Made by a program: the position numbers and the translations under genes. This document shows positions 5,054 through 32,245 of a stretch of DNA of 36,416 nucleotides, piece by piece. Position 1 is the first letter of the stretch; each line of letters begins with the position of its first letter. The notes beneath the pieces were generated by a model. It made no database searches. It was not told where the DNA came from and worked only from the letters and a program-made list of their open reading frames with translations. Source of the DNA: a virus; the UHGV virus genome UHGV-1512937; one strand, 5' to 3'.

Positions 5054-6823
5054 TCAGTTGCCGTTAACAATGCTGATAACGCTGCTGCGGGCCGGCGTGG
5101 TCAGCGTGGCCATTACTTCATCCAGTGCGGCTTCCGGTACGCCGTCCGGGTACTGTGCCGTTAACTGGCGGTAATGTTCCGGCGTCCAGGTAAGGCCGTC
5201 GGCGCTGAACTTATCGCGCAGGGCTTTCGCGGCCTCCACATGAGTCATGGGACGTTGTTCAGTGCGCGGTCTGCGTACATCAGAGACCTGACCGCGCTTC
5301 GGTATACAGGCCGGAAGTGTGGCGTCATCAATATGTTTATACGGGTCAAGCCGCCCGCCGAACGGCAGCGCCTTCGCCTTGCGTGCGGCAGCTGCATCTG
5401 CGGCGTTGTCTGTACCGGTGACCAGCGCTTCGGTTTCTTTTGCCGCCGTCTGTGCCGGTGTTTCCGGCAGGGCTTTGTAACTTTCGCCAAATACCGCCGC
5501 GCCTTCAGCAAAGCCAAACTCGTTCTTTCTGACCTCTTCGACCAGGAAGAACGTCTCGTGGCCGTCCTCACCGGTCAGAACCACCTGTGCCACATCGCTG
5601 CGCCATGGGTTACGGGTAATCATCAGTTTTTCACCAACCAGTACGCCCGGTACCGTTGATACGTCAAATTCAGTGCCCCGGAACGAGACACGAAGTTTTG
5701 GCGTGACTTTGCGGAGTTCTGGTGTCGCCACAGCCAGTTCACGGCATACCTCAACGGAAGGCGCTTTTTTCAGCTGCTCAGCAGTAATCTTCAGCCAGAT
5801 ATCCGTGCGGGTTTTACCGTGGCGGCTGTGAACAGCTGTTGCGTTAAAGTGGCTACGCCATTTCGCGGCCAGCGCGTTGAGTTCTTCCAGACTGTGAACC
5901 GGCCGGAATTTCAGACCCGGCTCCAGCTTGCGTTCGATAATGTCACGCGCCTTTTCCACCTGTCCGGTGGCGCGGGCGTTATGCGGCTTGTGCGCTATCA
6001 GGTCGATGCCCAGTGAGCGGCACATGTTTTTCGTCATACCCGCGGTGTTTGCCGAGCCGGGGTCGAGATAGAGTATTTTCGGCACGCCGTGCAGCACGTC
6101 TGCGCCGCCACGCTCCTGCATGGCGTTGATAAGCACAGAACACAGGTTCTCACCGGATTCCGCACCCGTCACATACTCAACGTAAATCCAGCCGCTGGCA
6201 TGGTCGGTAATCTCGTAACTCCACACGCGGTCACTGGCGATACGGGCAAGGTTAGCGGGTTTATTCTTGTAGAACTTCGCGCTGTCCATCACCTGCAGCC
6301 CTTTGTGTCCATTGCTCAGGTAGTAAAGCGTGCAGAGCGAGGCATCAATCTGCCAGACGTGATTGGGATGCAGACTGGCCACTTCGGTATGCGGCGCAGG
6401 GGCATCCAGTTGTTCCGGGTGCAGGCCATAGTTACGCAAGGCACGACTGATGGCATCTTCGGACAACGGGAAAAACTCACCGGTGGTTTCATCTGTTCTG
6501 CCTGCGGAGATAAAGCCGTTAGCCCGCAGGGTTTCCACTGCATCTGCGATGGAATAGAGACGCTTACCGTTCTTGCGGGTGGCCTCACGCAGTGTGGCAG
6601 ATATCAGCGCGGCTTCGTCGCGGGTCAGGGCGCTGCGCCCGGCATCGGCGCGTTTTTTGCGTTTATCAGTCACAGATACCTCCTTCAGCCTGCGCAGCAG
6701 AGTGGCGCGGGACATGCCAAGTTCAGCACAGGCAGCGTCGTATATTGCACCGCGTTTACCATGCCCCGCGTCACGTGCCGCGCGGGCGACATAAACCAGT
6801 CGTTCAGTCAGGGCAGCATTCAT
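5054..6823 (-). CDS. DDE transposase, integrase-core (rve) fold, of the BcepMu/Tn552-like type
   Basis: 589 aa; candidate catalytic triad in WQIDAS, ITDHASGW and GQVEKA with spacing typical of retroviral-integrase-fold transposases; GGAGG upstream of the ATG. Much shorter than, and not alignable by eye to, canonical Mu MuA. Confidence 0.85.
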   Translation of the reverse strand: MNAALTERLVYVARAARDAGHGKRGAIYDAACAELGMSRATLLRRLKEVSVTDKRKKRADAGRSALTRDEAALISATLREATRKNGKRLYSIADAVETLRANGFISAGRTDETTGEFFPLSEDAISRALRNYGLHPEQLDAPAPHTEVASLHPNHVWQIDASLCTLYYLSNGHKGLQVMDSAKFYKNKPANLARIASDRVWSYEITDHASGWIYVEYVTGAESGENLCSVLINAMQERGGADVLHGVPKILYLDPGSANTAGMTKNMCRSLGIDLIAHKPHNARATGQVEKARDIIERKLEPGLKFRPVHSLEELNALAAKWRSHFNATAVHSRHGKTRTDIWLKITAEQLKKAPSVEVCRELAVATPELRKVTPKLRVSFRGTEFDVSTVPGVLVGEKLMITRNPWRSDVAQVVLTGEDGHETFFLVEEVRKNEFGFAEGAAVFGESYKALPETPAQTAAKETEALVTGTDNAADAAAARKAKALPFGGRLDPYKHIDDATLPACIPKRGQVSDVRRPRTEQRPMTHVEAAKALRDKFSADGLTWTPEHYRQLTAQYPDGVPEAALDEVMATLTTPARSSVISIVNGN

Positions 6824-6826
6824 TGG

Positions 6827-7738
6827 TTATGCCTCCAGCCCGTTAATCTGTGGCGTCGGCTCAGTCAGCCATGAAGGCGCGACATCGCCTGTTGGCTCGT
6901 CCGGCAGGTCAAATGTGGAGCGCAGGCTACGCGCTGTGCTTTCCAGTTGACAGACCAGGCCTGCCATGAAGTCTCTGGGGGTATCAATCATGTTTTCAGC
7001 ACAATATGCGCACAGTGTCTCAAAAGCGCTGGACAGTCGAACGGCGATGGCAGATTCCGCCTCAACCGCTAACGCGGTCACTTCCGCCCGCAGTTTCTTC
7101 ACCTCTTCATCAGGCTCAGGTGGCTGAATACGGGATTTCTTCTCCAGTCTGGTGGAGAGTGAGTCTATTTTTTCATTTTTATCGGCGAGAACACGCTGTT
7201 GTGCTGCGTTGGTTTCGCGCGCTTCACGCAGGGCCTGACGCAATTCACGTACTGACATGCGATCAACATCGTCAAGCGTCATGCCGGCAACTGTGCCGCC
7301 GTCGGCCAGTTCGGCAAGCTCTTCGTCGTCTTCTGTCATTAATTCGAAAAGTTTGGCTTTTCCCAAATGTGCCAACGTTGGCACATTTGGTTTCAGCGCC
7401 GGGGATAAGTATTTTGTCGATGCTTGCATCATTCTCACAGATGTCCGGTATGCCAGCCCCAACTCACTTTCAAGAATCTTTATAAACTCCCCGTGTGGTT
7501 CATTTTCCTTAAGGATTATCAGCCGCTTACCTGCCTCCAGCATGGCCTCAGCGCTCTGTGCCATATAAAAGCGTGCCTCATGGACAACACGATCGCGCTC
7601 ATAGGGCAGACCATCGCCGAACTGTTGCATGATTTCCATGCGATGCTGTGTCATGGCGTTTAGACTGACATTGAGATCATCCGACAGCGGTACCTCGACG
7701 TTCAGTTCAGTGCTAACCGGTGATTTGGTGCGTCCCAT
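6827..7738 (-). CDS. conserved early-region protein, coiled-coil rich; function unknown
   Basis: 303 aa ORF directly upstream of the transposase in the same operon; acidic and helix-rich. Confidence 0.55.
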   Translation of the reverse strand: MGRTKSPVSTELNVEVPLSDDLNVSLNAMTQHRMEIMQQFGDGLPYERDRVVHEARFYMAQSAEAMLEAGKRLIILKENEPHGEFIKILESELGLAYRTSVRMMQASTKYLSPALKPNVPTLAHLGKAKLFELMTEDDEELAELADGGTVAGMTLDDVDRMSVRELRQALREARETNAAQQRVLADKNEKIDSLSTRLEKKSRIQPPEPDEEVKKLRAEVTALAVEAESAIAVRLSSAFETLCAYCAENMIDTPRDFMAGLVCQLESTARSLRSTFDLPDEPTGDVAPSWLTEPTPQINGLEA

Positions 7739-7748
7739 TGATTACTCC

Positions 7749-8057
7749 TTACAAACGACTACCTGAAATAACACGTTGGTTGATTTCGTTAATGCGATCC
7801 TGTGCACGTGCCATCTCGTTACTGTGGGCCATGGCGATCTGCAGCAACTGGATGCCTGGTGCGAAACGCCCGTTTTCCAGTTTCAGGGCTAGTCCCTCTT
7901 CGATAAGGGTATTGAGTGCTCGATTGATGTTCGCCGGGGACTCATCTAGGGCTGATGCCAGTTCACCGTTAGAAACACCGTTCAGAGAGTGACCGCGTAG
8001 AGCTTTGAGTACACGTAGGATGCGGGTCCCGGAACTGGAGATATTTACTTTACTCAT
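7749..8057 (-). CDS. putative winged-helix DNA-binding protein
   Basis: Translation from the internal ATG at 8057 (MSKVNISSSGTRILRVLKALRGHSLNGVSNGELASALDESPANINRALNTLIEEGLA) resembles an IclR/MarR-like winged HTH. The longer start at 8120 would overlap the Ner-like gene; neither start has a strong RBS. Confidence 0.5.
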   Translation of the reverse strand: MSKVNISSSGTRILRVLKALRGHSLNGVSNGELASALDESPANINRALNTLIEEGLALKLENGRFAPGIQLLQIAMAHSNEMARAQDRINEINQRVISGSRL

Positions 8058-8109
8058 GTCACATTTCCATTTTTGCAATATGTGATAACCTGTTGCATAT
8101 ATGGAAAAT

Positions 8110-8298
8110 TTATGCCGCATTTGACGTGGGTTTTAATCCCAGCTTTACGGCAATTTCATGGGCTTTGCCGTAACGAGCTTTGGTCTGTCCATTGAGAACA
8201 CGATAGACCTCATTGCGGCTGTAGCCGTGTTCTTCGGCCCAGCGGGTAAACGTGATACCACGCTGACGGAAGAGAGTTTTAACTTGTTCGGAAGTCAT
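8110..8298 (-). CDS. Ner/Cro-like small DNA-binding regulator, first gene of the early operon
   Basis: 62 aa; HTH-like GYSRNEVYRVLNGQTKARYGKAHEIAVKLGL; AAGGAG 7 nt upstream; divergent from the repressor gene, as ner is from c in Mu. Confidence 0.55.
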   Translation of the reverse strand: MTSEQVKTLFRQRGITFTRWAEEHGYSRNEVYRVLNGQTKARYGKAHEIAVKLGLKPTSNAA

Positions 8299-8384
8299 TG
8301 TTGTCTCCTTTGTTGATGCAATGATGTTTGTTTTATATGTGATAGATTATGAGAACCATTGTTCTCATTGTCAATGAGGTTTAT
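8299..8384. promoter_or_regulatory. divergent early/repressor control region with a 6-4-6 inverted repeat (GAGAAC CATT GTTCTC, 8351-8366); candidate operator
   Basis: AT-rich 86-bp interval between the Ner-like gene and the preferred repressor start; inverted repeat read directly from the sequence. No promoter hexamers were matched. Confidence 0.35.
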
Positions 8385-8810
8385 GTGAATTTTGATTCTC
8401 TTTGCGCGTCGCGGTTCAAAGCTGAGCGTTCGCGGTTATCACTCAAGCAGGCTGAAGTAGCAGCCCTTTGTGGCGTTTCAAGAGAAATGTGGGGGAAATA
8501 TGAACGAGGGGTTGCAGTTCCCGGAGGTGAGTTACTTGCAGCCTTTGCAAGAATTGGGGCCAACGTACAGTTCATTCTTACTGGGGAATCATCAGGTATA
8601 ACTTTATCACGTGATGAAATGGAGTTACTTCAGCACTACCGGCAAGCACCGTTACAAGTCAAAGGTTCAGTTTTGTCGGCATTGACGACTGGCTCCTCCA
8701 GAGAACGGGCGGAACAGGTTATTCATGGAGATGTTCTGGGGAATGTTATCAAAGGTAACGTAACCATAGGAACAGGTGGAATAATGAACAAAAATACAAA
8801 GAGAAAATGA
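8385..8810 (+). CDS. XRE-family HTH repressor (putative prophage lysogeny repressor)
   Basis: HTH LSLKQAEVAALCGVSREMWGKYERG near the N-terminus; GTG at 8385 has GAGG 5 nt upstream, while the in-frame ATG at 8349 lacks an RBS; divergent from the early operon. Confidence 0.6.
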   Translation: MNFDSLCASRFKAERSRLSLKQAEVAALCGVSREMWGKYERGVAVPGGELLAAFARIGANVQFILTGESSGITLSRDEMELLQHYRQAPLQVKGSVLSALTTGSSRERAEQVIHGDVLGNVIKGNVTIGTGGIMNKNTKRK

Positions 8811-9793
8811 GTAAAGAGAAGCAAACAGTTAACGGAGATGTGGGTAACGTTGTCAGCGGTGATGTTACCATTCATAACTATTCTGCTGACATACTTCCCT
8901 CTGCCCAGCAACCAATTTCGTTGCTGCAAAAACGCGATTTACACAGATTGATGGATGAATTGGTTGATCTGGGGGAAAGTAAGCGCGAACTATGGATGAC
9001 GATCCACACGAAACTTAATACCAAAACAGTTAATGAAATGACTGCGGCTGATTATCATGGTGCGGTTGAGATCCTCCAGAGATATGCACAACAGATCCAG
9101 AATATGAAGGACTGTAATCTTCTGGTCAGCAAAATAATGGTGCTTACTGACCCTAGGTATCGTCTTGACCGTGACAGATACTGTCTGAAGCATTTCGGTA
9201 CAACCCATCTTAAAGGCCTGGACAAAGAGCAGTTGCAGGCTGTGTTTGGTTATTTTGATGATCTGCTGAATATTCGTGATGAGAGTAAAACTCTATCACC
9301 TCCATCGGACAGCGGGGCAAAATCAGTCGCGACTGTACCAACCAGAAGCCGGAAGCCTCATGTAGTAGTGTTGGGGGGAGCGTTAGTTCTTGTCGCAATA
9401 TTTTTCGTGGGAATGATTGTGTTCGCTGGTAAATGGGGAAATGCTAAAGCAGTAGCATCTACTGAAACCAGCGTTTTTAACATTAAAACCAACGACAAAA
9501 TAATAGAAGATTCCATCCCAGCATTACGCAGCATGTTTCCAGGGTTAAATAAGTACTCAGATGATTTCCATTCGGTTTCAAGCTACAAGCAAAAATCGGG
9601 CTGGCATACCCTTAAATTCACGGTGTCTACACAGGCAATAATACCTGAATCTTATGGTGTTAAAGGGAAAACTTGTTACATCAACATAAACCCCGATGGT
9701 CGTTATGCCCGTGTTTTGACCGCCCCATGTAGAGCTCTATTACTTGACCAACAAAACACTCCAGATAGTAAATATCGTTATATTTTGAAATAG
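8807..9793 (+). CDS. bitopic membrane protein of unknown function (accessory 'moron' gene A)
   Basis: 328 aa; ATG overlaps the repressor stop (ATGA at 8807-8810); single predicted TM helix (HVVVLGGALVLVAIFFVGMIVFAG) separating a ~185 aa N-terminal domain from a ~120 aa C-terminal domain; visibly AT-richer than flanking phage genes. Confidence 0.6.
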   Translation: MSKEKQTVNGDVGNVVSGDVTIHNYSADILPSAQQPISLLQKRDLHRLMDELVDLGESKRELWMTIHTKLNTKTVNEMTAADYHGAVEILQRYAQQIQNMKDCNLLVSKIMVLTDPRYRLDRDRYCLKHFGTTHLKGLDKEQLQAVFGYFDDLLNIRDESKTLSPPSDSGAKSVATVPTRSRKPHVVVLGGALVLVAIFFVGMIVFAGKWGNAKAVASTETSVFNIKTNDKIIEDSIPALRSMFPGLNKYSDDFHSVSSYKQKSGWHTLKFTVSTQAIIPESYGVKGKTCYININPDGRYARVLTAPCRALLLDQQNTPDSKYRYILK

Positions 9794-9813
9794 AAAATAA
9801 CTGCGAGGCTATT

Positions 9814-10425
9814 ATGGGGCTAATTAAACGATATAGAACAGATTATCCGAACCAAGTACATCAACTTTCTGTTGCTGTTTCAAAGCATTATTATGCGGGA
9901 GTTGATGGATTGCTTAAGTACCAGAAAAAACCATTTGATATAAAACTTAGCAATGCAAGTAAAACTGGAAAAGATCATTTACTAGTCTATTCGTTACGCG
10001 ATCACTACAGTGGTTTGTTTTATATAGAATTGGCATTTCTTTCTACACCACAACCTATAACAGCTTTTTTGGGAAGGGCATGGAGGCCAAAGGAAGATAA
10101 CGTGTTACAGGGTCTTCCTGATATGCTGATGATCCCCAAAACTGTAGAAGATGAGTTCCCTAACGTATGTAATGCCGTTTATAACCAAGGAGTTGATCTT
10201 TTAAAAGTAACCAGCGGTTTTCAGAGTGGAGGGCTTATCGCCATACGAGCGGTAGAGGAAGATCTTAAATTCTACACAAATACTCCTATAGCACGAGTTC
10301 GTGAGGTTGCGGTTAAAACATGCAGATACAATGCTAATGATATCGCCCGAACCAATAAAGAAACAAAGCAAGAGATGTGGTTACGAAACGTCGGTCAGAT
10401 AGATATACCTTCTCCAGATTTTTGA
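9814..10425 (+). CDS. soluble protein of unknown function (accessory 'moron' gene B)
   Basis: 203 aa ORF 20 nt downstream of gene A on the same strand; AT-rich; no recognisable motif. Confidence 0.55.
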   Translation: MGLIKRYRTDYPNQVHQLSVAVSKHYYAGVDGLLKYQKKPFDIKLSNASKTGKDHLLVYSLRDHYSGLFYIELAFLSTPQPITAFLGRAWRPKEDNVLQGLPDMLMIPKTVEDEFPNVCNAVYNQGVDLLKVTSGFQSGGLIAIRAVEEDLKFYTNTPIARVREVAVKTCRYNANDIARTNKETKQEMWLRNVGQIDIPSPDF

Positions 10426-10687
10426 AACCTGAAATCACGGTGTCGACGGTTCATTCTGACGCATCATTTATTCTCGTCAGTTGCCTCATATTCGTGCGTG
10501 CTAGGAAACATCGGCCAGAATATGTCTGGCATGGCGGCGTTTACAACCAATCCATGGAGCGATGGGGAATGTCTGCATTTTCATAATCTGTAACCCTTTT
10601 ATAATTATAAAAAATATGGCAGGCTAGTCTGGTCTCGCGAGACTGACTGAACCTCGGTCGGCTCACAGTGCATTCCTGTGGGGCGAT

Positions 10688-10719
10688 GACCAGCCCGGAG
10701 TTCGGGTACCGGGCTGGTC
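10688..10719. other. perfect 11-bp-stem hairpin (GACCAGCCCGG / CCGGGCTGGTC, 10-nt loop); candidate terminator or structured RNA
   Basis: Inverted repeat read directly from the sequence, followed by GTTCTTTC; lies in a ~400-bp non-coding gap; a 12-bp palindrome GTCTCGCGAGAC sits at 10632-10643. Confidence 0.4.
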
Positions 10720-10834
10720 GTTCTTTCACTGTCAGAGTTCAGAGTGAAGTTTTGAGATACATGATTTCTATTAACGCGATTTACTGGATGCATTACCTAC
10801 GTGCAGTGTTTGTTCGATAAGGATTGTTTTCTGA

Positions 10835-11410
10835 ATGGGAACGTATTACACACTTGATTCCGCTAGTCGTCTGCCTTCGCCTTGTCATGTAATTACCGGA
10901 AAATACGAGCCTGAAATGCCAGAACTGGCCGCTTTTCTTCATCAGATGTATCCCAATGGCCTTTCGAGTCACGGGTATAACTATCTCTATAACCCCGGCC
11001 CTAAAATGGAAGATGACAGTGGAATCAGCAGAAGTCTGCTGGTCGGTCTGGTGTTTGAGTTAGTTCGCCGTAGCCATTTTCCTGATAAACCTTCCCGCTA
11101 TCAGTCACTGTTTGCCTGTCAGCATCTGAGTGAAGTCAGGAAGTTCAGGGAATTACTGGCTGATGAGAGAGGCGAAGACGAAATAAGAACGGCACCGATA
11201 TATGAAGTCATCACAAATGAGCAGGTGCATCGCGGAGATATGAGGTTATTGAACAGTGATTGCCCGGTGCTGGAACTGTATCACCGTGCTTGGCTTTACT
11301 GGTCGGGTGAAGCAGCCCCAGTTAAGACTGGTGAGGACGAACCGTTCTGGGAACTGCTGATTCCGCTTCCAGTATTCGTTGGTCGAAGGATAACTGAATC
11401 GCAGGATTAG
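10835..11410 (+). CDS. hypothetical protein
   Basis: 191 aa ORF with AAGGA upstream of the ATG; its 3' end overlaps a convergent minus-strand ORF by 89 bp. Confidence 0.4.
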   Translation: MGTYYTLDSASRLPSPCHVITGKYEPEMPELAAFLHQMYPNGLSSHGYNYLYNPGPKMEDDSGISRSLLVGLVFELVRRSHFPDKPSRYQSLFACQHLSEVRKFRELLADERGEDEIRTAPIYEVITNEQVHRGDMRLLNSDCPVLELYHRAWLYWSGEAAPVKTGEDEPFWELLIPLPVFVGRRITESQD

Positions 11411-11645
11411 GTGCGGTTTTATATCGTGATGTCGCCGCCACATCGCCAATTAGCATGACGTTGTTTTCTCCGCTGGCGAAATGACTTCTTCTCTCTTCAA
11501 GTGCAACCAGAACGTTTTTCAGCTCTATAATCGCTTCGGTTGGACAACATGCATCCAAGCTTAGCGTGTAAGTTTTATTCTGCTCTCCGATTCTGCTCCC
11601 AAAGAGGAACCCTTTTTTAATACCAGACTGTTTCGGTTCAGTCAT
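11322..11645 (-). CDS. hypothetical protein with strong RBS
   Basis: Internal ATG at 11645 (MTEPKQSGIKKGFLFG...) is preceded by GGGGAGG at optimal spacing; ~107 aa; divergent from the late operon. Confidence 0.5.
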   Translation of the reverse strand: MTEPKQSGIKKGFLFGSRIGEQNKTYTLSLDACCPTEAIIELKNVLVALEERRSHFASGENNVMLIGDVAATSRYKTAPNPAIQLSFDQRILEAESAVPRTVRPHQS

Positions 11646-11775
11646 TGTGCTTGCCTCCCCTATGTTTTGTGTGCGACCATTCTGGTCGCTTCCCTCTGCG
11701 AACACTTATAACGCGCTTTAAAATCCGTATCCCGCCACATTTGTGATGCTGTCTCCACCAAACAAGGAGACACAC

Positions 11776-12126
11776 ATGAAAAGCCTGAAAAAATTCATTC
11801 CCCCTGTTAAAAAACCTCGCCTCAGCGGCTGGCTGCTGACCTCAGTGCTGTTGCTGGGCACCATCGCTCTGGTCTCGCCACAGCAGTTGCCTGTTGTGAT
11901 CTACAAGCTGGCACTCATCACGCTGGCAGCAGTGCTGGGTTACTGGCTTGACCGTTCGCTCTTCCCCAAAGCCCGTCCCGGTCAGTACCTGAAACATGAA
12001 GACAGGCTGATGGCTGAAGGGCGTTTCCCTGTGCAGACCGGCCTTCACCTTGTATTTTCTGCTGCGTTAATCCGCCGTGCACTGATTGTTGCAGCGGTCT
12101 GTCTGGCTGTGGCAACAGGACTGTGA
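11776..12126 (+). CDS. putative holin / small membrane lysis protein
   Basis: ATG at 11776 preceded by AAGGAGA; ~116 aa with hydrophobic helices (LSGWLLTSVLLLGTIALV, LALITLAAVLGYWL, IVAAVCLAVATGL); immediately upstream of the transglycosylase gene. Confidence 0.5.
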   Translation: MKSLKKFIPPVKKPRLSGWLLTSVLLLGTIALVSPQQLPVVIYKLALITLAAVLGYWLDRSLFPKARPGQYLKHEDRLMAEGRFPVQTGLHLVFSAALIRRALIVAAVCLAVATGL

Positions 12127-29218: not shown

Positions 29219-30360
29219 ACAGTACTGCGCAAGCCACATCAGCGTTAACCGGCGTCAGCGATGTGCTGACGCCGGTATTCACTCTGTGGTATTTGCAGAA
29301 AAACATCACCTCTGATATCGCGCCTTATGTCACCCGTGTGGTCTGGAGCGATAACATCAAAAATGAGTCCGATACCATTGAGGTGGAGCTGGACGACACC
29401 GATGGCCGCTGGCTGGATAAGTGGTATCCGGGCAAGGGTGACACGCTGACGCTGAAAATGGGTTATCAGGGCGAGAAACTGCTGTCCTACGGTACATTCT
29501 CAATAGACGAGATCGAAGTGAGTTCGCCCGCGTCCGTTGTCGCTATCCGTGGGGTGGCCACCTCGGTTAACAGTGCTCTGCGGACTAAATCCAGCCGTGG
29601 TTTTGAGAACACCACGCTGGCAGCTGTTGCGGGTCGGATTGCCAGAAAGCACCGGCTGAAACTGGTGGGCAGCATTGAGTCCATCAGAATCGACCGGGTG
29701 ACCCAGTATGCTGAAACCGACGTGGGTTTTCTGCGCCGGCTGGCCAGCGAGTATGGTTATGCAGTGAAAGTGGTCAGTGACCAGTTGATTTTTTCTCATC
29801 TGGCCACATTGCGCAGTCAGGAGCCGGTCAGGCAGTTAAAACCGCAGGATGTGGCCCACTTTTCCCTGCGTGACACCATCAACCGGGTCTATAAATCTGC
29901 AAAGGTAAAACACCAGAAAAGCAGCAGTAAAAAACTGATCGTCTACGAAGCTGATGGTGGTACCCGTGAAAGCGACAAAAAGCTCAAAGGCGGTAAGGTT
30001 ACCAGCGCTGACTCACTTAAAGTTAACAGCCGCGTCAGCGACCCGGACAGTGCCCGGATTAAAGCGGATTCAGCACTGGCCAGACATAACGAATACCAGC
30101 AGAACGGCTCCCTGACGCTGACGGGAACGCCTCAACTGACAGCAGGCAACAAAATTGAACTGGTGGGCTTTGGACAATTATCCGGTCCATGGCTGATAAT
30201 CACTGCCCGCCATGCGTTTGAGCGTAACAGCGGCTACACCACAGAGCTGGAAGTGGCACGGGGGCCAGTCACAAGAGGGAAAAAACAAAAAACTCAGAAA
30301 CTCACGGTTTATCACCCGGATGGCAGTACATCGACGGTGATTAAGGAGAAGAAAAAATGA
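29206..30360 (+). CDS. baseplate hub / late control gene D-like protein (P2 gpD, Mu gp44 family)
   Basis: 384 aa; size and order after the tape measure and U/X genes. Confidence 0.75.
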   Translation: MAEINSTAQATSALTGVSDVLTPVFTLWYLQKNITSDIAPYVTRVVWSDNIKNESDTIEVELDDTDGRWLDKWYPGKGDTLTLKMGYQGEKLLSYGTFSIDEIEVSSPASVVAIRGVATSVNSALRTKSSRGFENTTLAAVAGRIARKHRLKLVGSIESIRIDRVTQYAETDVGFLRRLASEYGYAVKVVSDQLIFSHLATLRSQEPVRQLKPQDVAHFSLRDTINRVYKSAKVKHQKSSSKKLIVYEADGGTRESDKKLKGGKVTSADSLKVNSRVSDPDSARIKADSALARHNEYQQNGSLTLTGTPQLTAGNKIELVGFGQLSGPWLIITARHAFERNSGYTTELEVARGPVTRGKKQKTQKLTVYHPDGSTSTVIKEKKK

Positions 30361-30869
30361 CTGGTGTCACCCGCCAGGTCGGTACGGTCAGTGCCGTTGA
30401 TGCCGACAGGGTTCAGGCCCGCGTTCGTCTGCCTGAATGCGATAATCTGCGCACAAACTGGCTTAACGTGCTGCAGCGCAATACCCAGGATAACAAGGAT
30501 TACTGGCTCCCTGACGTGGGGGAGCAGGTTGAGGTGCTGCTCGATGCCAACGGCGAGGATGGTGTTATTCTGGGCGCGGTGTACTCAGACGTCGATAAAC
30601 CGCCGTTCGGTGATAAAAACGTCCGGGGCACGAAGTACGCTGATGGCGCGGAGTTCAGTTATGACCGCGCGACCCATACGCTGACGGTCAAAGGAGGTAT
30701 CGAGCATGTGGTGATCGAGGTTGCAGTGGGTATTAGTCTGAAAGGGAAAACCATTGATTTGACAGCTGACACTATCATGGTGAACGGCAATCTTGAAATC
30801 AAAGGGAGTACCCATGCGACTGGTAACATATTTGCAGATGGACAGAATTCCAATCATCACTCTCACTAA
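30357..30869 (+). CDS. baseplate spike protein (gpV-like)
   Basis: 170 aa; ATGA-coupled to the gpD-like gene; size and position. Confidence 0.7.
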   Translation: MTGVTRQVGTVSAVDADRVQARVRLPECDNLRTNWLNVLQRNTQDNKDYWLPDVGEQVEVLLDANGEDGVILGAVYSDVDKPPFGDKNVRGTKYADGAEFSYDRATHTLTVKGGIEHVVIEVAVGISLKGKTIDLTADTIMVNGNLEIKGSTHATGNIFADGQNSNHHSH

Positions 30870-30950: not shown

Positions 30951-31826
30951 ATGCGGTTATCAAGATCCTTATGTAAAGTAGTTGGCGATGTCATTGCTAA
31001 CTCAGGCTCTCATGCAGCTTTAGATACGTTATTTCTTACTTCGGGAGCACCAGGAAACCCTCCGGCAGGATCTCATAGTACAAAATGGAAAGACTGGTTA
31101 TTTCTTGCAGGGCAAGATCCAGATACAGATAGTCTGGCAGTTCTGGGCGGAGTAATTGAGGAGTTTATGGATTTACCTCCAAAAGAAGGTACTCCCGAAT
31201 ATGCAGAATGGAAGGAAAAACGAGACAGAATTGAAGCTGTGTTACAAGAGAATGGACTTAGATATTATCGTTTTGGTCGAGTGTTGCCTGAAGGCCACAT
31301 CCCGTCACACAATATGGATTACCCAGAGACCATAATTACTTATCAACAGCCAGTAATGCCAGAAAAAGTTGAGAACTTACTGGAAAGGCTGGTCAAAGGC
31401 TTACAGCGAGCAATGCATCCACTTACTCATAGGCGAAAAGGAAGCCAGTCATTATCTTTTAGCAATGAATATGACGTGCAAGACCTTCTCCATGCATTGC
31501 TCAGACCATGGGTTCAGGACATCCGCCCAGAAGAGTTTACTCCAAGTTACGCTGGTTCAAGTACTCGAATGGATTTTTTGTTACCTGCGCATAAATTAGT
31601 ACTGGAAACCAAAATTGTTCGTGATCGTTCTCATGCAAAGAAAATCGGCGATGAACTTATTATCGATATAGAGCATTATCGTCGGCACTCTGATTGCAAA
31701 AATCTCTGGTGTGTCATCTACGATCCGAACCAGCTTATTACTAATTCTGAGGGGCTGAAATCTGATCTTGAGGGGAAGAGAGTCTCTAAAGACGGAGAAC
31801 TTATCGTCAAGGTTTTCGTAATTTAA
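30951..31826 (+). CDS. AT-rich inserted gene; protein with C-terminal PD-(D/E)xK-like motif (putative nuclease, candidate defence/abortive-infection gene)
   Basis: 291 aa; much lower GC by eye than flanking baseplate genes; C-terminal EYDVQDLLHALL ... RMDFLLPAHKLVLETKIV matches the E ... D ... ExK layout of restriction-endonuclease-fold nucleases. Confidence 0.55.
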   Translation: MRLSRSLCKVVGDVIANSGSHAALDTLFLTSGAPGNPPAGSHSTKWKDWLFLAGQDPDTDSLAVLGGVIEEFMDLPPKEGTPEYAEWKEKRDRIEAVLQENGLRYYRFGRVLPEGHIPSHNMDYPETIITYQQPVMPEKVENLLERLVKGLQRAMHPLTHRRKGSQSLSFSNEYDVQDLLHALLRPWVQDIRPEEFTPSYAGSSTRMDFLLPAHKLVLETKIVRDRSHAKKIGDELIIDIEHYRRHSDCKNLWCVIYDPNQLITNSEGLKSDLEGKRVSKDGELIVKVFVI

Positions 31827-31897: not shown

Positions 31898-32245
31898 ATG
31901 AAAACGACCTCAGTATTCTGGCAACCGGCTCTGCAGGCTCCCGGCGAAATCGTCCGGGGGCTGGATGATATCCAGCAGTCCATCCAGATCATCCTGCGGA
32001 CTCCCCGCGGCAGCGACCCGCATCGCCCAGAGTTCGGCAGCAATCTGCACCTTTATATCGACTGGCCTGTCGACCGGGCCATTCCGCATGTGGTTCGCGA
32101 ATCCGTCGATGCCATCAGGCGCTGGGAACCCCGCTGCCAGCTTATGTCGGTTAAACCCGCCGTCGACGGCGAACATCTTACGCTCCGGGTGAGCTGGAAA
32201 GGCTCAGACGGACAACCCCGTACTCAGGAACTGCTATGGCGCTGA
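31898..32245 (+). CDS. baseplate wedge protein (gpW / gp25-like)
   Basis: 115 aa; size and position before the gpJ-like gene; ATG sits in a GGGGCA-ATAC-TGCCCC hairpin and has no obvious Shine-Dalgarno. Confidence 0.65.
   Translation: MKTTSVFWQPALQAPGEIVRGLDDIQQSIQIILRTPRGSDPHRPEFGSNLHLYIDWPVDRAIPHVVRESVDAIRRWEPRCQLMSVKPAVDGEHLTLRVSWKGSDGQPRTQELLWR

Follow-up and report, generated by a model that had tools for sequence, protein, structure and literature searches.

Two independent accessory genes, a repressor-linked Flk_N membrane protein and a predicted inactive transposase core, in the lysogeny arm of a BcepMu-like Escherichia coli prophage

The DNA considered here is UHGV virus genome UHGV-1512937, a stretch of 36,416 nucleotides (nt) that is called the window throughout. 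At 8349-10425 it carries the gene of an XRE-type repressor and, behind it, two open reading frames (ORFs) for proteins of 328 and 203 amino acids (aa), ORF328 and ORF203. This segment corresponds to the lysogeny arm in a transposable, BcepMu-like prophage of Escherichia coli. A sequence-only reading had proposed it to encode a Rex-like system composed of a membrane protein and a soluble partner. The part of that proposal placing accessory genes in the lysogeny arm, downstream of the repressor, is upheld by the analysis; the pairing is not, for the two genes are separable. ORF328 and ORF203 are understood as two unrelated, uncharacterised genes that form two independent units and not one defence system, so that the apparent two-gene "system" reflects the chance side-by-side placing of an immunity gene and a moron. 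The local description given earlier was borne out in its details. Reading of the sequence shows the ATGA stop/start overlap between repressor and ORF328 at 8807-8810 and the 20-nt spacer (9794-9813) ahead of ORF203; hydropathy analysis places one membrane span in ORF328 and none in ORF203 (maximum 1.18), in agreement with a bitopic and a soluble protein; and both genes are AT-richer than the rest of the prophage (GC 0.43 and 0.39 compared to 0.55-0.57; more precisely, 0.426 for ORF328 and 0.389 for ORF203, with 0.45 for the repressor, compared to 0.548 in the early operon and 0.566 in the late genes). A scan of the locus for plus-strand terminator-like sites found none before 10699, which makes co-transcription of repressor, ORF328 and ORF203 plausible.

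Evidence for the independence of the two genes comes from their distribution. Comparison of the segment 8807-10425 with E. coli genomes by megablast gave 127 genomes with ORF328 (at least 93.6% nucleotide identity), of which no more than 27 carry ORF203 as well; in the remaining 100 the match is confined to positions 1-998 of the segment (ORF328 and about 10 nt), at ∼93.6% identity. In IAI39, the only ORF203-less genome inspected (L012, 5078-6173), repressor and ORF328 are followed by different cargo at the ORF203 position. Because 100 of the 127 ORF328 genomes lack an ORF203 match and the IAI39 slot is otherwise filled, the genes are not an obligate pair. Similarity to IAI39 in blastn covers 7001-9804 and resumes at 11709, whereas similarity to Klebsiella phage KP12 resumes at 10504, and these limits place ORF203 on a cassette of its own of ∼0.7 kb. 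Included in the cassette is a Shine-Dalgarno sequence for ORF203, GAGG at 9805-9808, which lies 5 nt ahead of the ATG. The site holds variable cargo in related BcepMu-like phages, with a Dam methylase or further genes in other relatives, and the repressor-holin slot of these phages is a modular cargo site. The IAI39 cargo comprises a protein of 193 aa (phrog_12025) that has a membrane helix at its C-terminus and a hydrophobic stretch rich in Gly, together with a minus-strand 158-aa gene annotated as "ABC transporter ATPase". In the window, the segment 10504-11708 contains a DUF2441 gene (10835-11410; PF10386, E 1.7e-7; phrog_5663) and ∼330 nt of upstream non-coding DNA; this module is ∼90% identical to its counterpart in KP12, is absent from IAI39 and constitutes a third independent cargo unit in the slot.

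Regarding the protein families, none had been recognised in the sequence-only reading for either protein, and this proved mistaken for both. ORF203 is a homologue of a transposase core, as detailed further below. ORF328 matches phrog_10002 over its full length, and phrog_5825 as well as NCBIfam Flk with its N-terminal half; the NCBIfam model (NF007987) aligns to residues 19-147 with E 1.6e-11 and 44.1 bits, compared to an equivalog cut-off of 353 bits. The match to Flk_N (PF27202) is a precomputed one on P0051, the 95%-identical representative of the ORF328 cluster. AlphaFold2 modelling gave two confident domains, one helical (residues 39-159) and one alpha/beta (231-313), with residues 1-30 disordered (predicted local distance difference test score, pLDDT, <50) and the linker and membrane region likewise disordered. 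No fold match in the PDB and no recognisable family was found for the periplasmic domain, and ORF328 itself matched no antirepressor family in Pfam or PHROGs. Weak matches to such families were obtained with the Flk_N relatives (phrog_245, E 4.5e-4 to 1e-3; phrog_2127, E 7.6e-4; Pfam ORF6C, E 0.0095), and phrog_17822 matches the repressor helix-turn-helix (HTH) and the Flk_N segment alike. A fusion of HTH and Flk_N was considered and rejected among the close repressor homologues (0 of 73), phrog_17822 being only an indirect hint of it.

The relatives of ORF328 are few, and they fall into two sets that correspond to its two halves. A profile search of 1.84 billion protein representatives returned only 114 relatives. 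One set consists of proteins of ∼190-220 aa in which the N-terminal domain is followed by a tail anchor at the C-terminus, along with true Flk proteins that have repeated domains; the other comprises proteins of ∼130-370 aa with the C-terminal domain only, several of which have lipoprotein (lipobox) signal peptides. In prophages of Pectobacterium (L013) and Pseudomonas japonica (L014), the Flk_N protein and the periplasmic domain are encoded as separate adjacent genes, whereas they are fused in the window, in IAI39 and in Serratia; KP12 has only the lipoprotein form of the periplasmic domain, directly after the repressor. The separate occurrence in related phages shows that ORF328 is a gene fusion of a tail-anchored Flk_N protein and the periplasmic domain, and the fusion in turn argues that the two parts work together. 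A metagenomic protein (P0118) joins the periplasmic domain to Ltp repeats (PF07553; phrog_15667 and phrog_4980, "superinfection exclusion"); ORF328 has no match to PF07553 and is held by a membrane helix instead of a lipobox. A tblastn search of isolated phage genomes with ORF328 and P0088 retrieved only KP12, Phi06_2974 B and phage 520873. ORF328 and ORF203 each occur on at least 1000 contigs, with every annotation reading "hypothetical protein".

The usual companion of the Flk_N gene is the repressor. In 16 of 20 loci scanned, a repressor-type HTH gene is followed by a Flk_N gene with a gap of -4 to +66 nt; in three of the 20 (L021, L027 and L029) the script found no upstream ORF and the loci were left uninspected. 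The HTH partner is an XRE-type protein of 126-153 aa, divergent from the early operon. The arrangement recurs in two types of prophage, the BcepMu-like type in E. coli, Serratia, Pectobacterium and Pseudomonas, and the integrase type in Serratia, Yersinia, Mixta, Rosenbergiella, Izhakiella, Enterobacter, Hafnia and others. Judged by these gene orders and by the sequences of the partners, ORF328 co-varies with the repressor and not with ORF203. In three integrase-type Serratia prophages (L015-L017; 4778-5422), the repressor-Flk_N pair is followed by a VasI-family gene (PF11319, associated with the type VI secretion system) and then by the integrase, so that the corresponding slot holds yet another cargo.

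The two partners moreover share a peptide. In the window, the repressor tail VIHGDVLGNVIKGNVTI and the Flk_N N-terminus TVNGDVGNVVSGDVTI have the same motif, and corresponding pairs are GNRVAGRDFNENK and QNRVAGRDFNENK at L019, IFNGDISGQFAGNQIIN and EFNGTAQGQFSSRDIIN at L013, and QQFNGPVGSVTSGDIVN and QQFHGRIDQVAAGDIRN at L030. Alignment of the window tail with the ORF328 N-terminus scores 55, compared to a shuffle mean of 21, and none of 2000 shuffles reaches 55; for six of seven motif types the cognate alignment exceeds 2000 shuffles. Cognate pairing is matched or beaten in only 17 of 5040 permutations overall, and in 17 of 720 within the GDV class. Tails of the NRVAGRDF class all pair with NRVAGRDF N-termini (10/10). 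One locus, L022, joins a window-type HTH (59% identity) to the other tail class, and its Flk_N partner likewise belongs to that other class, being 74% identical to the L019 partner compared to 25% for ORF328. Because only about half of the identical residues in tail and N-terminus use identical codons, the match is maintained at the protein level, and for the same reason a recent DNA duplication or gene conversion was rejected as the source of the shared peptide. A repressor-ORF328 fusion product made by programmed frameshift, readthrough or bypass was also rejected, given that the gap ranges from -4 to +66 nt and that the relative frame differs from locus to locus.

The repressor itself matches PHROG repressor/regulator families, is labelled as an HTH protein in RefSeq, and is built from the HTH, a conserved helix and a C-terminal tail; an S24 domain is absent. 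Its homologues are 130-143 aa long and begin with M-NFD, and a GAGG precedes the GTG at 8385, so that this GTG (giving 141 aa) is probably the true start rather than the ATG at 8349. One of two tail classes was found in 52 of 73 homologues, and the tails end Lys/Arg-rich. In a metagenomic protein of 238 aa (P0296), the window-type HTH is fused to a Peptidase_S24 (LexA-like) domain in place of the Gly-rich tail. The tail with its Flk_N module and the S24 domain are suggested as alternative C-terminal control modules. A sigma-70-like promoter site (8346-8374) lies upstream of a 62-aa Ner-like ORF (8110-8298) at the head of the divergent Ner-like/IclR-HTH/transposase operon. The spacer of this minus-strand site contains a perfect palindrome, which overlaps the annotated repressor ATG and is a candidate repressor operator.

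ORF203 belongs to another world of proteins. It had no match in Pfam (rve included), PHROGs or NCBIfam, and the homologue search recovered 50 proteins down to 36% identity, nearly all of 190-240 aa. The family is uniform in length (193-238 aa), has 15 invariant columns across 43 sequences down to 36% identity, and its AlphaFold2 model (pLDDT 91.8) has an RNase H-like catalytic-core fold. Comparison of the ORF203 alignment (A1) with the window transposase in hhalign gave a probability of 96% and E 4.5e-9 over residues 148-362 of the 589 of the transposase, with ∼24% identity between ORF203 and the phage transposase core. The hidden Markov model of the ORF203 family finds BcepMu-type transposases with E 7e-10 (window copy) and 1.9e-17 (Pseudomonas japonica prophage copy), values that refer to a small database of 2586 ORFs. 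The profile does not pick up an IS3 OrfB, and on this ground the view of ORF203 as a generic rve fragment was rejected. ORF203 and the transposase share the hallmarks PNxV(W/H)Q, (T/R)DHxSG, G(V/L)P and a C-terminal Trp. Profile searches of the PDB (A1, A2 and A3) gave nothing below E 0.3.

What ORF203 appears to have lost is catalysis. D160, D254 and E290 of the transposase are invariant in its own alignment (A6), with the 35-residue spacing counted from the sequence; their counterparts in the ORF203 alignment are S19, where the column is variable, P108, conserved to at least 90%, and G139. The only invariant Asp of the ORF203 family is D63, in a beta2-beta3 hairpin motif. The DNA-end-binding N-terminal domain and the C-terminal domain of the transposase are lacking. 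ORF203 is, as the alignments have it, a conserved, folded and catalytically dead transposase core; decay is unlikely because the conservation is too strong for it. As to a housekeeping role in the phage, ORF203 does belong to the transposase family, but as an inactivated paralogue. Near relatives of ORF203 reside in enteric BcepMu-like prophages, in Serratia again directly after an ORF328-type gene. Distant relatives adjoin ParDE, an unknown 382-aa gene, RhuM, HipBA in a conjugative element, an Mrr/CoiA/methylase island or a phage terminase, and no constant partner gene was found among the loci examined. Outside the enteric prophages the neighbours are unrelated and never include a Flk_N protein, contrary to the idea of the pair as a unit. 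At L006 (6979-8684), a distant homologue overlaps the stop of a RhuM-family gene (PF13310) by 4 nt; in no other context does a relative of ORF203 seem to be coupled in translation to a particular gene upstream.

Over the 3.5 kb around the locus, identity is 100% with prophages in the chromosomes of E. coli B7A, 3-72 and other strains, and of 5426 complete E. coli genomes, 635 contain portions of the region. As annotated in RefSeq, the B7A prophage has a Mu-type layout, in which the early region is inverted, and a BcepMu-type gene order (Table 1). Among isolated phages, Escherichia phage PhiKM (a Bcepmuvirus by classification) and a Klebsiella KP12 clone are the nearest. No Rfam family was found anywhere in the window, and no meaningful repeat was detected in 8000-11800. 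The repressor/ORF328 junction (8789-8816) and the start region of the IclR-type gene (8048-8075) form the arms of an imperfect inverted repeat of 28 nt, 75% complementary and 713 nt apart, which is probably due to chance. Far from the lysogeny arm, the plus strand at 30951-31826 carries an AT-rich (GC ∼0.44) ORF of 291 aa with a REase_DpnII-MboI domain (PF18742, E 4e-47), placed between the genes of a baseplate spike (30357-30869) and a gp25-like wedge (31898-32245); it has the look of a tail-module moron for a solitary restriction endonuclease of the GATC type. In related phages it is a Dam methylase, instead, that sits in the repressor-holin slot.

Table 1. Features of the lysogeny arm and its surroundings; positions are those of the window
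Feature	Position	Strand	Basis or remark
Prophage transposase, 589 aa, active-type, D160/D254/E290 with DD35E spacing	5054-6823	-	paralogue and proposed target of ORF203
Sigma-70-like early promoter, TTGACA-17-CATAAT	8346-8374	-	consensus scan, 11/12 matches
XRE-type prophage repressor	8349-8810	+	HTH_31 (Pfam), E 4.7e-7; 153 aa annotated
Perfect 18-nt palindrome TGAGAACcattGTTCTCA	8350-8367		read in sequence; only perfect copy in window
Repressor C-terminal tail motif GDVLGNVIKGNVTI, then Lys/Arg-rich end	8727-8768	+	homologue alignment
ORF328, bitopic inner-membrane protein; tail-anchored Flk_N protein fused to periplasmic domain	8807-9793	+	
ORF328 N-terminal motif GDVGNVVSGDVTI, copy of the repressor tail motif	8834-8872	+	alignment
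Cytoplasmic Flk_N helical domain, residues ∼30-160	8894-9286	+	
Single transmembrane helix, residues ∼186-208	9362-9430	+	hydropathy (KD19 2.9); ∼200-aa relatives end here as tail anchors
Orphan periplasmic alpha/beta domain, residues ∼215-328	9449-9790	+	pLDDT ∼81-95; invariant Cys C290, C308
ORF203 cassette, ∼0.7 kb, GC 0.40	9805-10503		IAI39 similarity ends at 9804, KP12 similarity restarts at 10504
ORF203, 203 aa, predicted stand-alone dead BcepMu-type transposase core (RNase H-like/rve fold)	9814-10425	+	
B7A prophage: Mor, gp16-family, Gam, ExeA-family, 589-aa "integrase catalytic domain" transposase, DUF3102, IclR-type HTH, Ner-like DNA-binding protein		-	
B7A prophage, divergent: HTH protein, two hypotheticals, DUF2441, holin, SLT lysin, then Mu-type head/tail genes		+	

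Several known systems offer themselves for comparison, and with them explanations of the locus that differ from ours. That ORF328 and ORF203 form one Rex-like exclusion or abortive-infection system, with the soluble protein as sensor and the membrane protein as effector, both expressed within the repressor operon, would accord with their common orientation, the ATGA overlap, the 20-nt gap without a terminator-like site between them and their shared AT-richness. With lambda cI-rexA-rexB the locus shares the position of the accessory genes behind the lysogeny repressor, probable co-transcription with it, and one membrane and one soluble product. The adjacency of ORF328-type and ORF203 genes in Serratia prophages, despite a diverged ORF328-type protein, points in the same direction, as do the island-like contexts of ORF203 relatives beside toxin-antitoxin, Mrr, SNF2 and DndB genes. 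RexB, however, is a four-helix membrane channel protein, whereas ORF328 has one helix and large domains on its cytoplasmic and periplasmic sides; no match to Rex was obtained at the level of sequence or model, and a scan of PADLOC-DB (E ≤ 1), in a version unchecked for the presence of Rex models, gave no family for ORF328 or ORF203. Together with the 100 genomes lacking ORF203, the other cargo in IAI39, the restriction of joint occurrence to enteric BcepMu-like prophages and the co-variation of ORF328 with the repressor, this makes a single Rex-like system very improbable; the resemblance to lambda Rex is one of gene arrangement only. The Flk_N homology (E 1.6e-11 for ORF328, 2.1e-10 to 2e-15 for relatives) raises a different prospect, namely that ORF328 acts like Flk (Fluke, RflH) of Salmonella and E. 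coli and alters motility or the sensitivity to flagellotropic phages by modulating the switch in flagellar type III export. Flk inhibits the export specificity switch and has a cytoplasmic domain anchored in the inner membrane through a single helix (PMC13344023), a topology that ORF328 reproduces. True Flk, however, has at least two Flk_N repeats (the bona fide Flk-like proteins P0167 and P0170 match in two stretches, ORF328 in one) and lacks the N-terminal peptide; ORF328 adds to its single copy the peptide of the repressor tail and a periplasmic domain, is encoded in a prophage immunity region instead of the flk locus, and at 44 bits falls far short of the 353-bit cut-off. Since a flagellar role would also leave the repressor linkage and the shared tail unexplained, we consider it improbable.

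More serious, though still unlikely, is the notion of ORF328 as a classical superinfection-exclusion or lysogenic-conversion protein of the envelope, whose periplasmic domain blocks DNA entry or masks a receptor while the shared peptide is the relic of an old local duplication without interaction. The place right after the repressor is a frequent site of exclusion genes: in Pseudomonas phage Fc02, olg1 and gene 10 in the repressor transcript exclude superinfecting phages (PMC9936078). Fc02 resembles the present prophage in being transposable, in having a ner-led early operon that diverges from the repressor gene, and in the accessory genes beside the repressor; its exclusion genes, however, are small ones upstream of the repressor, and with no homology seen the comparison is by arrangement only. 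Ltp of Streptococcus phage TP-J34 is similarly an envelope-exposed protein encoded beside a temperate-phage repressor, and the occurrence of the ORF328 periplasmic domain alone as a lipoprotein in the KP12 slot and in fusion to Ltp-type repeats in P0118, its invariant cysteines and its orphan, fast-evolving, AT-rich sequence all suit such a role. ORF328 differs in having no Ltp repeat and a periplasmic domain of no recognisable fold or family, and an exclusion role for it is putative. Most of the Flk_N repressor partners, moreover, are tail-anchored without a periplasmic domain, which implies a cytoplasmic site for the conserved function, and if the duplication were a relic, the two motif classes would not have stayed matched while diverging, with codons that have diverged as well. 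For ORF203, the doubtful alternative is that it poisons no transposase and is a repurposed RNase H-like module, serving as a nucleic-acid-binding sensor or effector in defence or addiction, or a decaying fragment without function. Distant relatives are found beside toxin-antitoxin, RhuM, Mrr, integrative and conjugative element or terminase genes and not in Mu-like elements, and several invariant residues, Y7, S23, Q37 and K39 among them, lie outside the motifs shared with the transposase. Against this stand the uniform length, the 15 invariant columns and the confident model, which speak against decay, as well as the silence of PADLOC, Pfam and NCBIfam, the loss of the catalytic acidic residues of the RNase H fold and a similarity that is specific to BcepMu-type transposases and does not extend to rve proteins in general. 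Of known precedents, Tn5 Inh and the P-element KP repressor are truncated transposase derivatives that lack catalysis and form inactive mixed multimers. ORF203 is like them in being non-catalytic, without the end-binding N-terminus and accompanied by an active transposase, and the same mode is proposed for it; it is unlike them in being no alternative product of the transposase gene but a separate old gene family, located ∼3 kb away on the other strand, with all DDE residues replaced, on a 0.7-kb cassette of its own and also present outside transposable phages. Membership in each of the known types (Rex, Flk proper, active DDE transposase, Ltp, Tn5-Inh-type inhibitor) fails on at least one defining feature.

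Based on this evidence, we favour an explanation in which the repressor and ORF328 form an immunity pair and ORF203 is a separately mobile transposase-core moron, and with the functions assigned below we hold it at a probability of roughly 45%. The first unit (8385-9793) would combine an XRE repressor lacking S24 with ORF328 as its membrane-anchored partner. The shared peptide could mediate co-assembly of the two proteins; alternatively, the ORF328 peptide could compete with the repressor tail for the Flk_N domain. By either route, ORF328 would titrate free repressor or keep it at the membrane, and the periplasmic domain might add an envelope-side function, be it exclusion of incoming phage or the reception of an envelope signal. 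Lacking the S24 autocleavage domain, the repressor needs a protein partner for its inactivation. There exist mechanistic analogies here: P22 Ant-type and Gifsy antirepressors act on non-cleavable repressors, and Mlc is sequestered at the membrane by PtsG. Flk_N matches the Ant-type PHROGs and ORF6C weakly, and these matches, together with phrog_17822 and a Red-beta-like bundle, are compatible with a repressor partner without establishing one. Unlike the antirepressors, the ORF328 gene is probably co-expressed with the repressor and not under LexA or lytic control; to our knowledge, a peptide shared by repressor and partner is not a feature of any described antirepressor. The second unit (9805-10503) would provide a dominant-negative protein, ORF203, that poisons Mu-type transpososomes through inactive mixed assemblies, with the effect that the lysogen is protected from heteroimmune transposable phages or that leaky transposition is damped.

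A number of observations weigh against this explanation. Each of its functional steps is inferred from sequence, and a repressor-binding protein that is constitutively co-expressed with its target requires an extra regulatory assumption. AlphaFold2 did not dock the ORF328 N-terminal peptide onto the Flk_N domain, and the similarities of Flk_N to antirepressors, ORF6C and the Red-beta C-terminal domain are all below family thresholds. The cognate specificity within a class is modest (the 17 of 720 given above), with some cognate pairs not being the best match, and the Flk_N relative at L031 is preceded by a non-HTH gene. The tail-coding region and the Flk_N start are only ∼80 nt apart, so that linkage alone explains the co-inheritance of tail and partner; it does not explain why the two resemble each other in both diverged classes, and that resemblance needs selection. 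As regards ORF203, indels around the catalytic Glu make the assignment of E290 to G139 less certain than those of the two Asp residues. Most of its distant relatives, furthermore, are found outside Mu-like elements; regulation of the own phage therefore cannot be the general role of the family, and any poisoning role would be aimed at invading elements and not at self-regulation.

A bolder version of the favoured explanation, unlikely as it may be, would have the locus combine a peptide-matched switch with a circulating decoy. The co-transcribed membrane Flk_N protein, here fused to a periplasmic domain, would present a copy of the repressor tail and thereby sequester a widespread class of enterobacterial prophage repressors, S24-less and with short Gly-rich tails that end Lys-rich, and so couple lysogeny to the state of the envelope. 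The dead transposase, passed around among bacteria and prophages, would act as decoy against Mu-type phages. In the searchable literature we found no paper on prophage Flk_N proteins, on mimicry of a repressor tail in a partner protein, or on a DDE-less transposase core or dead-transposase defence.

Lastly, the locus has importance as a set of accessory genes in the immunity arm of a prophage, with a real chance of something mechanistically new, and the immunity regions of prophages have a proven record of yielding genes for exclusion and regulation. If the peptide common to repressor and Flk_N protein marks a physical interaction, it would represent a new mode of control for non-cleavable phage repressors and would provide the first functional handle on Flk_N outside flagellar biology. 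Should the DDE-less core act as a dominant-negative decoy, it would confer a simple, single-gene immunity against transposable phages, based on a principle outside the current catalogues of defence, and ORF203 might then also serve as a tool for inhibiting Mu-type or TnsB-type transposases.

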